Part shown: positions 7,028-20,310 of the stretch, in pieces
Numbering within the stretch: position 1 is the stretch's first letter
How the letters are laid out: every line of letters starts with the position of its first letter
Source of the DNA: Candidatus Pacearchaeota archaeon
GTDB lineage: Archaea; Nanobdellota; Nanobdellia; Pacearchaeales; GW2011-AR1
Direction of reading: 5' to 3'
Assembly: GCA_018303885.1 (NCBI GenBank)
Contig: JAGVXG010000004.1
Coordinates: 1 to 57,036 of the forward strand
Length of the DNA stretch: 57,036 nt
Translations under genes and position numbers: made by a program
The notes under the pieces: generated by a model
What the model saw: the letters and a program-made list of their open reading frames with translations, nothing else
Databases searched by the model: none
What the model was told of the DNA's origin: nothing

Positions 7028-7432
7028 TTATCTGTAACTCGTCTGCCGCTTTCTTCTCGCCTTGCTGTCTCCTGGCTTGTAAGCTTCTTTTCTTCTGACA
7101 TCGGCAACGAGAAGATTTCTGTCATATTCAACAAAAGCTCTTTCAAGTTCTTTGTTTTTTGTGAATGCAACAATTGCCCTCGCAAGTGCAAGTCTTGACG
7201 CCTCTATCTGGCTTTTTTCTCCCCCGCTTCTGACATTTATCGCAACGTCGAAATTAATTTTACCAATCATATTCTGGGCAATTCTAATTGGTTCTTCAAT
7301 TTTAAGTCTATCTAACATCTGAAGTGTTTCATACGGTTTTTTGTTTATTGTTATTTTTCCAGAGCCTTCTGTAGCTACTGCTCTTGCGACAGAAGTTTTT
7401 CGTTTGCCTGAGGTAATTATTTTGGTGTTCAT
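7028..7432 (-). CDS. rps9: 30S ribosomal protein S9 (uS9)
   Basis: SGKRKTSVARA N-terminus; YDRNLLVADVRRKE and RQTSYR C-terminus. Confidence 0.97.
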   Translation of the reverse strand: MNTKIITSGKRKTSVARAVATEGSGKITINKKPYETLQMLDRLKIEEPIRIAQNMIGKINFDVAINVRSGGEKSQIEASRLALARAIVAFTKNKELERAFVEYDRNLLVADVRRKEAYKPGDSKARRKRQTSYR

Positions 7433-7434
7433 TC

Positions 7435-7836
7435 TTATTGTTGTTTTTTAAGCTCCTCAATTGTGATGAATTTACCCTTTACTTCCTTTCCTCCAGAAAT
7501 TTTCTTTAGCCCCTGAAATTCTTTAGGAATACCAATATAGCATTTTATTTTTGCCAAGGCAATTTTTCCCCTACCTTTTCTATGGTCTGGAAGCATACCC
7601 CTAATTACTCTTTTGAGAATTTTTTCAGAACTTCGCGAAACTTTAGGCCCTTTTTGTCCGCTTCCAATTCTCGTTCTAGATGCCTCAAAATCTGCCTTAA
7701 TATTTTCTCTGTTTCCTGTTATTATAACTTTCTCCGAGTTTAATATAACAATTTCCTCTCCTTTCAGAGCTTCTTTTGCAGCATAGCTTGCTAATCGTCC
7801 CATGATTGCGCCTTCTCCGTCTATTATCTTTGTCAT
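7435..7836 (-). CDS. rpl13: 50S ribosomal protein L13 (uL13)
   Basis: IIDGEGAIMGRLAS and KRVIRGMLP motifs. Confidence 0.97.
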   Translation of the reverse strand: MTKIIDGEGAIMGRLASYAAKEALKGEEIVILNSEKVIITGNRENIKADFEASRTRIGSGQKGPKVSRSSEKILKRVIRGMLPDHRKGRGKIALAKIKCYIGIPKEFQGLKKISGGKEVKGKFITIEELKKQQ

Positions 7837-8372
7837 TTTATTTTTGGTATAACAAGACCTCCAATTAAATCCTGTGAGAATACAACATCCTTTAGTCTTT
7901 TACTTCTTATAATCTCTCCACCAGAAAATCTTTTAATATCGCCATTTATCTCTAGCAGATATTCAAAACCCGTGTTTTCATGTCTTAAAGGGCCGCGAAA
8001 AGGAAGTTCAGGAGTTACTAACATTAAAACTTCTTTTAAAAATTTGAATGTATTCTCTGATAAAATATCGTTATGTCTAAATGCAGGAAGCATTCCTCCA
8101 GAATAAGCCATATACCAAATCCTTTGTCCGTCATCTTTTTGCCATCTTACTATTTCATTTCCAGGAGCCTGATAAGAGCCAGCATAATTATCAGTATAAT
8201 GAAAGTTTCCTTCTTGATATGTGAATGTTTTGGAGCCATCAGCTTCTCTTTTTTTACCTTCGCCGCCAGCATAGCCATTCCTCTTAGCCGCAACTAAAAA
8301 ACCTTCTAGTTCTTCTAAGTCAATTTCCAATTCTCCCAGCCTTATTTTCCTAAACAATTTTGTTACTGTCAT
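7833..8372 (-). CDS. DUF5680-like protein inserted between rpl18e and rpl13
   Basis: YAGGEG..DGSKTFTY.EGNF.YTDNYAG...GNEIV....WYMAYSGG pattern; ATGA overlaps at both ends. Confidence 0.7.
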   Translation of the reverse strand: MTVTKLFRKIRLGELEIDLEELEGFLVAAKRNGYAGGEGKKREADGSKTFTYQEGNFHYTDNYAGSYQAPGNEIVRWQKDDGQRIWYMAYSGGMLPAFRHNDILSENTFKFLKEVLMLVTPELPFRGPLRHENTGFEYLLEINGDIKRFSGGEIIRSKRLKDVVFSQDLIGGLVIPKIK

Positions 8373-8758
8373 TTTTGTTTATTTGTCAAAATCCTTACGC
8401 CTTTAGCTCCAGGGTTCTTTTTAATTTCTTCCATTATTGTTATGGCTTGCGATTTTGTTTTTAATAACTTTTCCTTTGTTTTATCAGAAAAGGCAAAAGC
8501 AACTATCGCCACTTTTTTGCTTAACTCGCCTTGGGAAAGAACTTTTCCAGGAACAACTATTGAATCGCCTTCTTTTGTCGATTTTTCAATATCATTTAAA
8601 TTAACAGCAACTTTTTGTCTTCTTGGGCTAGAAAGTATGCTAGCTACTTGCATCCAAAATTCAGAACCTGTTTTTTTAGCAGCCCTAATAGTTTCAACTA
8701 AAACTTCATTATTTTTTCTTTGCGACTGCTTTTCTATTTTTGTATTTGACTTAACCAT
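8369..8758 (-). CDS. rpl18e: 50S ribosomal protein L18e (eL18)
   Basis: VNLNDI, VVPGKVLSQG and AFAFS motifs. Confidence 0.96.
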   Translation of the reverse strand: MVKSNTKIEKQSQRKNNEVLVETIRAAKKTGSEFWMQVASILSSPRRQKVAVNLNDIEKSTKEGDSIVVPGKVLSQGELSKKVAIVAFAFSDKTKEKLLKTKSQAITIMEEIKKNPGAKGVRILTNKQK

Positions 8759-8898: not shown

Positions 8899-8920
8899 AT
8901 GCGGGAAGAAGGATTCGAAC
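8899..8920 (-). repeat. 22-bp exact copy of the tRNA-Leu 3' end (att-like scar)
   Basis: ATGCGGGAAGAAGGATTCGAAC at 8899-8920 equals 8988-9009. Confidence 0.85.
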
Positions 8921-8988
8921 TGAAAACCACCTGCGGGTTTTCGATCCTGCATCCATCGAATCCAATACTATTTTATTCAATAGCATAA

Positions 8989-9123
8989 TGCGGGAAGAAG
9001 GATTCGAACCTTCGCAGGCACTAAGCCAGCGCGTTTCTTTTAGATGAAATCACCATTAGACTGTTGAAAACAGTCTTTCATCTAACCTTAGCGCGCTTCA
9101 TTTGACCACTCTGACATTCCCGC
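8989..9123 (-). tRNA. tRNA-Leu, anticodon AAG, with a 51-nt intron at 37/38
   Basis: Acceptor GCGGGAA/TTCCCGC, A73; D arm TCA-GAGTGGTCAAA-TGA; anticodon stem GCGCG/CGCGC with loop CT-AAG-G|A; long variable arm; T arm GAAGG-TTCGAAT-CCTTC. Aligns register-for-register with tRNA-Leu(CAA) at 18421. Confidence 0.88.
9035..9085 (-). other. tRNA intron with relaxed bulge-helix-bulge motif
   Basis: h' helix TAGATGAAA/TTTCATCTA (9 bp), two 3-nt bulges, central helix CTAA/AAAG with only two pairs, internal hairpin AGACTGTT-TTC-AACAGTCT. Confidence 0.8.
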
Positions 9124-9190
9124 ACAGAAGAACCAAGGTTCTTCCGCACCATCTCCTTAAGAGACAGCAGCATAGAACCTAAGGTTCCGC
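9124..9190. repeat. Two related REP-like palindromes upstream of tRNA-Leu
   Basis: GAAGAACC-AA-GGTTCTTC (9127-9144) and GAACCT-A-AGGTTC (9175-9187), each followed by (C)CGC. Confidence 0.6.
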
Positions 9191-9260
9191 GCCTCCAACC
9201 TTTAACTATAATAAACACAGAGACAAAGATATTTTAAAGCTTATTATTTAATAAAATAAG

Positions 9261-10109
9261 ATGATACATTCCTTTACTAAGCTGGAAGATTTAAAGAAAG
9301 CTCTTTCTTCGGCTAAAATTCAGAGAGACGTTAATTCCCTATTAAAATTAGAACTTCCATTTTTTGACTATCAGGATAAAGTTTCCATTCTTTATTTTCC
9401 TATTTACGGAGAAAACGACGGAAAATGTTTGATTGTAATCTCAAAGAAGGATATTTTTGTGTACACTCCAGCTAGTTTTGGAAATCATTGGAAAAGTTAC
9501 AAACAACTTTTAACAAAATCACATGGTGAGAGTACAATAATGACTTTTCTCATGCTTAAATTTGTCCTTAAAAATTATTCAGAACAATTCCAAAGAATAA
9601 GAGATAGAATGAACGAGTTAGAGTCTTCGCCTATTCTTGACTATGTTGAGGATTCTGGCAGAGCCCTTAGAAGATTGACAGATAAAATGGAAAGTCTTGT
9701 TGAGCTGATAATTATCTTAAAGCAAAGAGAAATAAAACAATTCGACACAAATCTTGTTAGTTTTGATTATGAAATCCTAAGTACAGAGGCAAGATACTGG
9801 CTTGAAAGATGTAGAAGCCACATATACAGGATAGCGTCTTTAAGAACTAAATCTGAAATGCAATCAAACAGAGAGCTAAACGATACTATGACAAGACTTA
9901 CAGTAATCATGACTGTTTTGACAATTGTAAGCATAGTTGTTTCTGTTCCAGGAACTATTGGAGCTGTATTTGGAATCCCTGCGTTATCAGAGGCATATTT
10001 CAGCTCACACACACCTTTTTTGGTTATAATACTCATCGCTGCCACAGCAATGTCAATTATTTTTGGATTCCTTTATTGGAAGTCCCTTGGTTTGAAGTAT
10101 AAGAGATAA
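9261..10109 (+). CDS. CorA/ZntB-superfamily-like divalent cation transporter with non-canonical signature
   Basis: Soluble helical N-domain, S-x-x-N-x-E-L-N-D-T-M-x-x-L-T stalk, two C-terminal TMs; the GMN position reads GIP. Confidence 0.65.
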   Translation: MIHSFTKLEDLKKALSSAKIQRDVNSLLKLELPFFDYQDKVSILYFPIYGENDGKCLIVISKKDIFVYTPASFGNHWKSYKQLLTKSHGESTIMTFLMLKFVLKNYSEQFQRIRDRMNELESSPILDYVEDSGRALRRLTDKMESLVELIIILKQREIKQFDTNLVSFDYEILSTEARYWLERCRSHIYRIASLRTKSEMQSNRELNDTMTRLTVIMTVLTIVSIVVSVPGTIGAVFGIPALSEAYFSSHTPFLVIILIAATAMSIIFGFLYWKSLGLKYKR

Positions 10110-10139: not shown

Positions 10140-10253
10140 GAAGACGGCCATAGTAATTAGGTCACACCTGATCCCTTTCCGAACTCAGAAGTTAAGCCAA
10201 TTACGCCGTTTGTGTTAGTGTCCGTCAAGACGCGAAGCAATGGTGCTGTCTTC
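10140..10253 (+). rRNA. rrf: 5S rRNA, unlinked from 16S/23S
   Basis: Terminal helix GAAGACGGC/GCTGTCTTC; CCTGATCCCTTTCCGAACTCAGAAGTTAAGC loop C/B signature; TATA (TTTATAAA) about 22 nt upstream. Confidence 0.92.
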
Positions 10254-10264
10254 GATTTTCTTTT

Positions 10265-18390: not shown

Positions 18391-18420
18391 TTTTATAGGT
18401 TTATTTAGTGATATTTTGAT

Positions 18421-18504
18421 GTGGGTGTGCCGGAGTGGTCAAACGGGCGGGTCTCAAGAACCCGTAGCTTAGTGCTTTCCTAGGTTCGAATCCTAGCACC
18501 CACA
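18421..18504 (+). tRNA. tRNA-Leu(CAA)
   Basis: GTGGGTG/CACCCAC acceptor, CGGGT-CTCAAGA-ACCCG anticodon arm, long variable arm, CTAGG-TTCGAAT-CCTAG. Confidence 0.96.
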
Positions 18505-18514
18505 TAATCGGTCA

Positions 18515-18590
18515 GCCCGGGTAGCTCAGCCTGGATTAGAGCGAAAGGTTCCTAACCTTTAGGTCGCAGGTTCAAATCCTGTCTCGGGCA
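18515..18590 (+). tRNA. tRNA-Arg(CCT)
   Basis: GCCCGGG/CTCGGGC acceptor, GCTC/GAGC D stem, AAAGG-TTCCTAA-CCTTT, GCAGG-TTCAAAT-CCTGT. Confidence 0.95.
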
Positions 18591-18596
18591 TGAAAA

Positions 18597-19334
18597 ATGA
18601 ACAAACAAAAACTCAAAAAATTCGCAAAGGAAGTTTCAATACCAATTATCTTATTAGCAATTTATTTTATTTTGTTTCATGTCCAAAAAGTAGTTTCTTT
18701 GCCAGCTCAAGACGCTTTAATCGAACTTACCTTAGATTACATAAACACGAGAAGCATTTTTTTCATTTTTTTAATAGCTCTAGTTGAAGGAGGCCTGATT
18801 CTTGGACAATATGCGCCAGGAGGTATTGTTATTTCTTTAAGCATAATTTCTGCTGGCGGCGACGTAGTCAAAGTAATTCTTTTGTGCCTAGTAATTTCAT
18901 TAGCCTACCTGGTTGCCTACGGTATAGACTACTTTATTGGTTATTATGGGATAAATAGGTTAATTGAAAAATTTGGATTGTACGATCGCGTTTCAAAATA
19001 CAAAAGACTTCTTGAAAAAAATGTGTTTACTACTATATTTTTTAGTTATTGGGAAACAAATATAGCTTCAATTGTTGCTGCAGCAGCGGGTTCTTTGAAA
19101 GTTTCCTTTAAAAAATTCTTTCTATACTCTGTTATTTGTGTTTTATTCTGGGTTATTTTTTGGGCAATAATACTCTTCTTTTTTGGAAACATAGTTTTGA
19201 GAATTTTAGGATACCAATACCTTCTTATACTGGTTGTTATCTGGATATCTTTTATTTTTTATAGGAATTTTTTAAAAAAAGAAGAACCACCCCAAGAAAG
19301 TATTATAGAAAAAATAGAGGAAAAATTAACGTAA
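18597..19334 (+). CDS. DedA-family membrane protein
   Basis: ALVEGG.ILG..APGG re-entrant motif, AY...YFIGY, AAAGSLKVSFKKF. Confidence 0.7.
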   Translation: MNKQKLKKFAKEVSIPIILLAIYFILFHVQKVVSLPAQDALIELTLDYINTRSIFFIFLIALVEGGLILGQYAPGGIVISLSIISAGGDVVKVILLCLVISLAYLVAYGIDYFIGYYGINRLIEKFGLYDRVSKYKRLLEKNVFTTIFFSYWETNIASIVAAAAGSLKVSFKKFFLYSVICVLFWVIFWAIILFFFGNIVLRILGYQYLLILVVIWISFIFYRNFLKKEEPPQESIIEKIEEKLT

Positions 19335-19401
19335 ATCCTTAAGGTAAGTATAGCAGGTAGTATCATCGGTAAATTTATATACTTTGAAGCCATAAAGTTT
19401 C

Positions 19402-20223
19402 ATGGCTCTTTTTGTTCGATTATCTTCGAAACAAAGAAAAAAGTTGTTTACTAAAATTAAAACAAAAATAAATTCTTGGGAAAAATTTTATCCTAATTAT
19501 AACATTAGCCGAGCAATGTTTTTTAATTATTTGTCTGGGAAGTACCATATCCCCCTAGAACTATTTAATTCTTGGAAAAAAATAGCAGAATTTAAAGATA
19601 ATGTCAATGTTATTGAGAAGGAAAGATATCTAAAAAAGGAAATAAAAGAGATTCTTTTAGATGAAAACTTGGCCGAAGTTATTGGAGTTTTAAATGGTGA
19701 TGGGCATATCTCAAAAAATAGGAAAGAAATTTGTGTCGTAGGAAACAAGAATGAAAAAGAATATTCAGAATATTTACAGAATTTATTTCATAAAAAGCTG
19801 CAGATAGATTTTCATTTATTCTTTTATGGAAGTTGCTTTAAACTTAAAGGTTATTCTGTAAAATTAACAGATTTCTTTACAAAAAATTATGGTTTACCGA
19901 AGGGCAATAAAATGGGTAAGTTGCATATCCCGTATCAAATATTAGTCAACAAAGAATTTTTAATAAGATATATAAGGGGGTTATTTGACACAGATGGCAG
20001 CTTTTATATCAGAAGAAAAAAAGACCCTGTTATAGAAATAAGCAGCGCAGATGATAGATTTTTAAAAGAGATAACAAAGGCGTTATTTTCTCTAGGATTT
20101 AATGTATCAAAAGGAGTTAATAGACTGTTTATCTATAGAAAAAATGATATAATAAAATTTTATAATGTAATAAAACCTTCTAACTCTAAACATTTAAAAA
20201 AGTACCAAAACACCTTTAAATAA
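19402..20223 (+). CDS. Free-standing double-motif LAGLIDADG homing endonuclease with N-terminal HTH-like domain
   Basis: LAEVIGVLNGDGHI and YIRGLFDTDGSF, both acidic catalytic positions intact; no intein splice motifs or host gene around it. Confidence 0.88.
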   Translation: MALFVRLSSKQRKKLFTKIKTKINSWEKFYPNYNISRAMFFNYLSGKYHIPLELFNSWKKIAEFKDNVNVIEKERYLKKEIKEILLDENLAEVIGVLNGDGHISKNRKEICVVGNKNEKEYSEYLQNLFHKKLQIDFHLFFYGSCFKLKGYSVKLTDFFTKNYGLPKGNKMGKLHIPYQILVNKEFLIRYIRGLFDTDGSFYIRRKKDPVIEISSADDRFLKEITKALFSLGFNVSKGVNRLFIYRKNDIIKFYNVIKPSNSKHLKKYQNTFK

Positions 20224-20224
20224 A

Positions 20225-20296
20225 GCGCTGGTGGGTTAATGGCTAGACTTCCTGCCTTCCAAGCAGGAGATCCGGGTTCGACTCCCGGCCGGCGCA
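20225..20296 (+). tRNA. tRNA-Gly(TCC)
   Basis: GCGCTGG/CCGGCGC acceptor, CCTGC-CTTCCAA-GCAGG, CCGGG-TTCGACT-CCCGG. Confidence 0.96.
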
Positions 20297-20310
20297 CTTT
20301 AAAATAGAAA

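Follow-up and report, generated by a model that had tools for sequence, protein, structure and literature searches.

The window, by which we mean the whole 57,036-nt stretch of DNA that was analysed, belongs to an assembly of 720 kb in 17 contigs, with 35% G+C and 85% completeness, whose closest named relatives carry the labels Candidatus Woesearchaeota or Nanoarchaeia. The locus described here contains an intron-bearing tRNA-Leu gene with the anticodon AAG, followed downstream by a short repeat of its own 3' end and by a cluster of ribosomal protein genes, as follows.

9123..8989, minus strand: tRNA-Leu(AAG), class II, intron-containing; cloverleaf read from the window sequence
9086..9123, minus strand: 5' exon, positions 1–37 (acceptor 5' strand, D arm, anticodon stem 5' strand, C32 U33 A34 A35 G36 G37); the same 5' half occurs in 33 of 41 relatives
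9087..9089, minus strand: anticodon (A34 = 9089, A35 = 9088, G36 = 9087), read as in intronless orthologs with the loop CUAAGGA
9035..9085, minus strand: intron, 51 nt, at the canonical 37/38 site
8989..9034, minus strand: 3' exon (A38, anticodon stem 3' strand, long variable arm, T arm, acceptor 3' strand, discriminator A at 8989)
8900..8920, minus strand: exact 21-nt copy of the tRNA 3' end (TTCGAATCCTTCTTCCCGCAT), 68 nt downstream of the tRNA gene
8369..8758, minus strand: rpl18e, which opens the ribosomal cluster next to the tRNA on its downstream side (weak Pfam match: 26.4 bits, cut-off 28)
7836..7435, minus strand: rpl13, conserved cluster
7432..7028, minus strand: rps9, conserved cluster

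On the minus strand the 5' half of the tRNA gene reads GCGGGAA UG UCAG AGUGGUCAA AUGA A GCGCG, then C32 U33 A34 A35 G36 G37. The intron is followed by A38 and CGCGC, the long variable arm (UGGCUUAGUGCCUGC), the T arm GAAGG UUCGAAU CCUUC, and UUCCCGC with the discriminator A; CCA is not encoded at the 3' end of the gene. The spliced tRNA is 84 nt long, with a 7-bp acceptor stem (GCGGGAA / UUCCCGC), an anticodon stem of GCGCG / CGCGC and a D arm of UCAG-AGUGGUCAA-AUGA, and all stem pairs are canonical apart from the G13.A22 mismatch in the D arm, which is found throughout the family. It has the features of a class II tRNA-Leu, namely the 7-bp acceptor stem, a long variable arm with its own stem, A73, G37 and the T loop UUCGAAU; the variable arm, GGC-UUAGU-GCC, is common to this gene and the three other tRNA-Leu genes of the genome.

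Removal of 9085..9035 leaves the loop CUAAGGA, which is identical to the loop of intronless orthologs from the same genus, and because these orthologs carry CUAAGGA the anticodon must be AAG. A previous sequence-only reading of the window had proposed a tRNA-Leu with A34 in the register C32 U33 A34 A35 G36 G37. Its register and coordinates are exact when compared with the window sequence and the intronless orthologs, and the leucine identity is borne out by the class II cloverleaf and by the orthologs that read AAG; the paralog that it placed at 18421 is also real, and is tRNA-Leu(CAA). We conclude that 9123..8989 (minus strand) is a genuine class II tRNA-Leu with an A34 anticodon.

The intron is located between positions 37 and 38, where splicing yields CUAAGGA, and consists of a 10-bp helix (9085–9076 with 9040–9049) and an inner 7-bp hairpin. 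The textbook 3-4-3 bulge-helix-bulge, with two 3-nt bulges and a 4-bp helix, is not found in the precursor: within the central helix, pairing is limited to C32:G9037 and U33:A9038, A34 and A35 face A9039 and A9040, and the minimum-energy fold of the precursor has a 6x6 internal loop at this position. The splice motif is therefore a relaxed form, and the motifs of the genome's intron-bearing tRNA-Leu(UAG) and of the intron-bearing AAG genes of relatives are likewise irregular. Broad-specificity splicing endonucleases are known in DPANN archaea. The sequence-only reading had correctly seen that the precursor base opposite A34 is an A (9039), and had taken it as a hint of an ancestral U34. This hint does not hold: the helix is imperfect at position 35 too and the intronless orthologs have A34, so that the A.A mismatch carries little weight. 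The possibility that the intron holds a box C/D guide RNA, of the type found in euryarchaeal pre-tRNA-Trp, was considered and rejected; all four boxes need a mismatch, the would-be D box CUAA lacks the kink-turn G, and the ends of the intron merely make the 10-bp helix.

Default ARAGORN does not report the gene, and the Rfam tRNA model (RF00005) gives a misaligned match of 17 bits against a gathering cut-off of 29. Both programs miss it because of the intron; the Rfam model is unable to span a 51-nt intron together with a long variable arm. The Rfam failure is no argument against the gene, because the intron-bearing tRNA-Leu(UAG) of the same genome is also absent from the Rfam tRNA matches. 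With introns allowed, ARAGORN finds the gene and labels it Phe(aaa), the intron being misplaced within the anticodon loop so that four loop bases come from the 5' exon, compared with six in the correct splice. The labels Phe(aaa) for this gene and Ser(aga) for intron-bearing orthologs were rejected on the basis of the class II Leu body, the 37/38 intron and the intronless orthologs, which are AAG. In practice, standard tRNA finders overlook tRNA-Leu(AAG) or mislabel it, for example as Phe(aaa) or Ser(aga). We note that the -30 region of the gene has no strong CTTTAAAA-type box of the kind common before the genome's tRNAs.

Leucine tRNAs and codon usage

The 85%-complete genome contains exactly four tRNA-Leu genes: UAA, CAA, UAG and AAG. 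Apart from the AAG gene, these are as follows.

contig C1: tRNA-Leu(UAA)
18421..18504 of the window, plus strand: tRNA-Leu(CAA)
contig C5:820-960: tRNA-Leu(UAG), intron-bearing, partner of the AAG tRNA

ARAGORN labels the gene at C5:820-960 as tRNA-Leu(taa), which we rejected since an intron at 37/38 gives tRNA-Leu(UAG). Neither tRNA-Leu(GAG) nor tRNA-Leu(CAG) was found in this genome (85% complete), and the CUN box is served by two tRNAs, AAG and UAG. The sequence-only reading had asked whether GAG or UAG would be missing from the leucine set: GAG is missing and UAG is present. The AAG tRNA is the sole dedicated CUU/CUC reader of the genome, with no spare copy, and because there is no other such reader it is not redundant, contrary to the suggestion in the same reading that it might be a redundant copy.

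The tRNA-Leu(CAA) gene is the first member of a cluster tRNA-Leu(CAA) - tRNA-Arg(CCU) - tRNA-Gly(UCC) at 18420-20297. In many other genomes of the group this cluster begins with tRNA-Leu(AAG), and the difference indicates that Leu genes have been relocated or swapped among loci.

Codon counts within the CUN box are CUU 4921, CUC 1045, CUA 1490 and CUG 1060 in this genome, and CUU 5005, CUC 576, CUA 769 and CUG 873 in a second genome of the same genus, G022. CUU thus accounts for 58% of the box here and 69% in G022, and is the most U-biased choice among the four-codon boxes. Expressed as CUC/(CUC+CUU), the value is 0.103 in G022, which is the lowest of 16 U/C codon pairs, and 0.175 here, the second lowest; the other four-codon boxes here range over 0.16-0.30, except for Arg CGN at 0.395 and Gly at 0.516. 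The CTN codon usage that the sequence-only reading had put forward as a check is therefore dominated by CUU with CUC retained, the latter still being in use at 1045 codons, or 5.6 per 1000. When CUC was compared with control boxes in 13 AAG and 8 GAG genomes, the median ratio was 0.85 versus 0.99 (p = 0.14), which is a trend only. As there is no significant depletion, CUC must be decoded reasonably well by some route. The codon bias agrees with an A34 whose best partner is U, CUC being read weakly through A.C pairing or by tRNA-Leu(UAG); decoding of this kind has been reported from experiments with unmodified A34 in E. coli (PMC11066159), and the bias would also be compatible with inosine.

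Conservation and ancestry of the A34 tRNA

The gene was compared by BLAST with 40 relatives, followed by ARAGORN. Intronless tRNA-Leu(aag) genes are present in many relatives, and most copies are intron-free with the loop CUAAGGA. Counts of AAG and GAG were made in 41 genomes with a pattern that runs from the D loop through G37. The AAG 5' half was found in 33 of the 41 relatives and in 23 of the 25 genomes of the genus, and the same pattern with GAG matched none of the 41. With a pyrimidine at position 34, the pattern found tRNA-Leu(UAG) in 31/41 and tRNA-Leu(CAG) in 0/41.

A wider scan, with one genome per prokaryotic species, gave at least 120 named DPANN records that match the pattern; the labels among the matches listed are Woese-, Pace-, Nano-, Aenigmat- and Parvarchaeota. 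About 100 of these listed matches are called intact tRNA-Leu(aag) by ARAGORN. Among 105 distinct AAG sequences, in which the anticodon is fixed by the search pattern and its invariance is therefore uninformative, the stems are 97-100% canonical at each pair position (the conserved G13.A22 aside), and many stem positions are occupied by three to six types of pair. This covariation reads as the signature of a tRNA under selection. The sequence-only reading had warned that A34 might be a base-call error or a recent private change, and had suggested a survey of related MAGs. The survey, with AAG in 33/41 relatives and 23/25 within the genus, together with the more than 100 named DPANN genomes and the compensatory changes in the stems, largely rules out both.

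We then extended the comparison to a phylum sample of 401 high-quality genomes (GTDB Nanoarchaeota, with the NCBI labels Woese-, Pace- and Nanoarchaeota), using a strict pattern. This identified 54 genomes with AAG, 93 with GAG and none with both, the other 254 lying outside the strict pattern. The AAG genomes are smaller (median 0.7 Mb, compared with 1.1 Mb for GAG; p = 5e-16) and lower in G+C (median 0.32 compared with 0.42; p = 0.006, measured on 40 kb of each genome). In all, 17 families contain AAG, and both states are found within six families and one genus, so that the switch must have happened many times. Position 32 is U in all 93 tRNA-Leu(GAG) of this sample, and in the tRNA-Leu(AAG) it is C in 18 and U in 36; the C32 may have followed the switch, as a secondary adjustment in the anticodon loop.

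The position of the gene indicates where it came from. Downstream of the tRNA, the minus strand of the window carries rpl18e, a DUF5680 gene, rpl13 and rps9 in that order, and the identity of rpl18e is supported by homologs that adjoin the tRNA in other genomes. The neighbours rpl18e-rpl13-rps9 accompany tRNA-Leu(AAG) in this genome, G071 and G357, and accompany tRNA-Leu(GAG) in G281, from the same family, and in G253 and G300, from other families. A second neighbourhood is common to G022 (AAG) and G290 (GAG), and the ribosomal cluster is also present at 45 to 55 of 120 named AAG loci among the matches listed. Because it occupies the position that GAG holds in other families, the AAG gene must be the former GAG gene, in other words the positional ortholog of archaeal tRNA-Leu(GAG), produced by an in-place G34-to-A34 transition. 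The sequence-only reading had instead considered descent from tRNA-Leu(UAG), which is contradicted by the existence of a separate UAG gene (C5:820-960) and by the rpl18e-rpl13-rps9 position shared with GAG. An attempt to judge a UAG origin by similarity was abandoned, since the 84-nt bodies of the Leu isoacceptors compared are about 77-89% alike and neither tree nor identity can separate them.

The DUF5680 gene between rpl18e and rpl13 (7833-8372, minus strand) was found elsewhere only in the close relative L083 among the compared loci; in G281 and others rpl18e directly adjoins rpl13.

Deaminase genes and decoding by A34

Deaminases were sought with Pfam PF00383, with the NCBIfam TadA model (cut-off 150) and by CDA-type motifs. 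The cytidine/deoxycytidylate deaminase domain (PF00383) is present in only 26 of 41 relatives, several AAG carriers that are 86-92% complete have no PF00383 match, and the PF00383 proteins inspected in five relatives from the genus are of dCMP-deaminase type. In the 401-genome sample, the NCBIfam TadA model identified small TadA-like ORFs in 7 of the 54 genomes with AAG and in 19 of the 93 with GAG (odds ratio 0.58, p = 0.37), and TadA-like genes are therefore not associated with AAG across these 147 genomes. The G022 genome, which is 531 kb in three contigs and has 39 tRNAs including Leu AAG/UAG/CAA/UAA, contains no A34 tRNA besides tRNA-Leu(AAG). Its six reading frames contain no H/C-A-E...PCxxC protein, and its one deaminase-domain protein is of dCMP-deaminase type. 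PF02137 (ADAT1/ADAR-type) gave no match, control genomes being equally silent.

The genome studied here has two TadA/guanine-deaminase-like proteins.

contig C14:7939-8238, minus strand: TadA/guanine-deaminase-like protein, adjoining tRNA-Cys and tRNA-Arg(UCU)
contig C8:14850-15158, plus strand: TadA/guanine-deaminase-like protein

The two paralogs share ~44% identity, and the zinc and catalytic motifs (HAE, PCxxC) of both are intact. Their core is ~45% identical to S. aureus TadA, with only the N-terminal core aligning, and the region past the VYGA motif is nearer to guanine deaminase than to TadA. They score 85 and 61 bits on the TadA model, below its cut-off of 150; their closest full-length homologs are in the GAG genomes G295 and G290, and they were not found in the genus relatives inspected. 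The TadA/ADAT search proposed in the sequence-only reading thus gives a divided answer, in that two TadA-like genes are present here below the cut-off, but such genes are not associated with AAG and are absent from G022. An A34 tRNA has replaced the G34 isoacceptor, as is seen in I34-type decoding, but an ortholog of TadA or ADAT2 co-occurring with it was not found by these searches (85 and 61 bits here, no association across the sample, and none in G022). The genus and most of the clade combine a reduced, AT-rich genome lacking an A34 deaminase with an A34 tRNA that serves a four-codon box; the present genome differs in its two TadA-like paralogs.

The gene is a conserved, non-redundant tRNA-Leu(AAG), the positional ortholog of tRNA-Leu(GAG), and we consider it reasonably probable that its A34 is unmodified. 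On this explanation, G34 was switched to A34 in place, repeatedly, in the small AT-rich genomes of this DPANN phylum. The 51-nt intron would be spliced out and the tRNA charged by LeuRS; archaeal LeuRS does not read the anticodon. A34 would then form a Watson-Crick pair with the dominant CUU codon, and CUC would be read weakly through an A.C wobble or left to tRNA-Leu(UAG). Position 34 probably stays adenosine, its chemistry and the expression of the tRNA being predicted from the genes.

The sequence-only reading had set unmodified A34 against an unknown deaminase; the choice between an unmodified A34 and an unknown or acquired deaminase is the right question. One of the two TadA/guanine-deaminase-like proteins could convert A34 to inosine in this genome, giving a tRNA-Leu(IAG) that reads CUU, CUC and CUA, like its counterparts in Lactobacillales and eukaryotes. 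Their intact HAE and PCxxC motifs and the ~45% identity of their core to S. aureus TadA are compatible with this, as is the observation that CUC is little depleted here (0.175), less than in G022 (0.103), which has no such protein. We nevertheless regard it as unlikely, in view of the scores of 85 and 61 bits against 150, the alignment of the N-terminal core alone with a guanine-deaminase-like region after VYGA, the full-length homologs in GAG genomes, the lack of association between TadA and AAG, and the use of the same tRNA by genomes of the genus that have no such gene. A34 might instead be turned into inosine, or carry some other modification, throughout the clade through an enzyme that does not belong to TadA/ADAT, such as the archaeal deaminase that makes m1I57; this would accommodate both the retention of the tRNA by many genomes that have no TadA-like gene and the continued use of CUC. 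Archaea deaminate m1A57 in tRNA, by an enzyme that to our knowledge has yet to be identified. Such clade-wide modification is somewhat less probable still: it has no positive evidence, the genomes are very reduced, and the strong CUU bias fits a plain A:U reader. Wobble inosine arising in Archaea from a deaminase unlike TadA/ADAT, whether of a new family or the m1I57 enzyme, is improbable to a similar degree; if true, I34 decoding would have originated here independently of bacteria and eukaryotes.

It is very improbable that the A results from faulty sequencing or assembly, or that the gene is a decaying, unexpressed descendant of tRNA-Leu(UAG). Such a reading could draw on the A.A mismatch that A34 makes in the precursor, on the weak promoter box at -30, on the fragment of the tRNA's own 3' end just downstream and on the inability of the 84-nt bodies to separate isoacceptors. 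Against it, A34 recurs in 23 of the 25 genomes of the genus and in more than 100 other genomes, all stems are intact, the UAG gene is separate, no other CUY reader exists and the neighbourhood is that of GAG.

Papers up to 2026 describe A34 tRNAs and TadA/ADAT as absent from archaea, in agreement with the background assumed in the sequence-only reading; one survey counted three ANN tRNAs among 10,517 archaeal tRNAs in GtRNAdb, and the near-universal lack of unmodified A34 is read in the literature as strong, ancient purifying selection. Searches combining DPANN lineages with inosine, anticodon or TadA, in literature other than subscription journals, found no published report of the AAG pattern. 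The closest parallel in bacteria is the Lactobacillales (Oenococcus, Leuconostoc, Streptococcus, Lactococcus, Lactobacillus), in which tRNA-Leu(AAG) becomes IAG and AAG replaces GAG across the clade, there read as an ancestral G34A change (bioRxiv 10.64898/2026.05.15.725136; PMC8007984; PMC13249217). However, TadA is present in the Lactobacillales, and the tRNA-Leu of Oenococcus and Streptococcus has been demonstrated to contain I34, whereas here the host is archaeal, most carriers have no TadA-like gene and the switch occurred many times. Ferroplasma acidarmanus fer1 has an archaeal tRNA-Leu(AAG) that has been attributed to a G-to-A change from GAG, with GAG absent there; that was reported as a gain in one species among 167 genomes (PMC6000648), whereas here AAG is the norm of a genus and occurs in many families. 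Mycoplasma capricolum tRNA-Thr(AGU) resembles the present case in being a four-codon-box A34 tRNA with a U34 partner and no dedicated deaminase in a small AT-rich genome (cited in bioRxiv 10.64898/2026.05.15.725136 and PMC11066159). It differs in the amino acid, in its bacterial host as opposed to archaea, and in that the unmodified A was shown directly there, whereas here it is inferred. With the canonical archaeal tRNA-Leu(GAG), finally, the AAG tRNA shares the class II body, the rpl18e-rpl13-rps9 position and the role of CUY reader; the differences are A34 in place of G34, and C or U at position 32 compared with the invariable U of the 93 sampled GAG tRNAs.

A large archaeal radiation has thus repeatedly swapped G34 for A34 in one four-codon box, mostly without a recognisable deaminase, and has kept AAG under purifying selection after the swap. 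Either unmodified A34 is workable, and perhaps favoured, in AT-rich reduced genomes, or there is an unrecognised archaeal route to wobble inosine; both answers bear on the avoidance of ANN anticodons.

Other features around the gene

The exact 21-nt copy of the tRNA 3' end at 8900..8920 has no 5' part and is not a tRNA; the lack of a 5' partner and the short distance of 68 nt to the gene also speak against a split-tRNA half or an integration scar. A hairpin motif, GGATCGAAAACCCGCAGGTGGTTTTCAG, precedes the copy at 8947..8920 (minus strand). Close copies of this motif (GGAAAATCGAAAAAAACCGCAGGTTGTTTTCA) are found immediately before ATG starts on contig C16 (20023, 20643, 27560); others precede a non-ATG sequence at 35191 on contig C3 and a tRNA-like 5' fragment at 4661 on contig C7.

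Upstream of the tRNA gene, a weak CTTAAGGA box is present at about -38 to -31; most tRNA genes of the genome have CTTTAAAA or CTTTATAA. The leader at 9124-9220 (minus strand) contains two similar palindromes, GGAACCTTAGGTTC and AGAACCTTGGTTCT. A strong box at 9200-9216 is oriented the opposite way, toward the ORF at 9261; this ORF (9261-10109, plus strand) is divergent from the tRNA, is 282 aa long and has no Pfam match. It is followed by a stand-alone 5S rRNA gene at 10140-10254 (plus strand; 72.6 bits).
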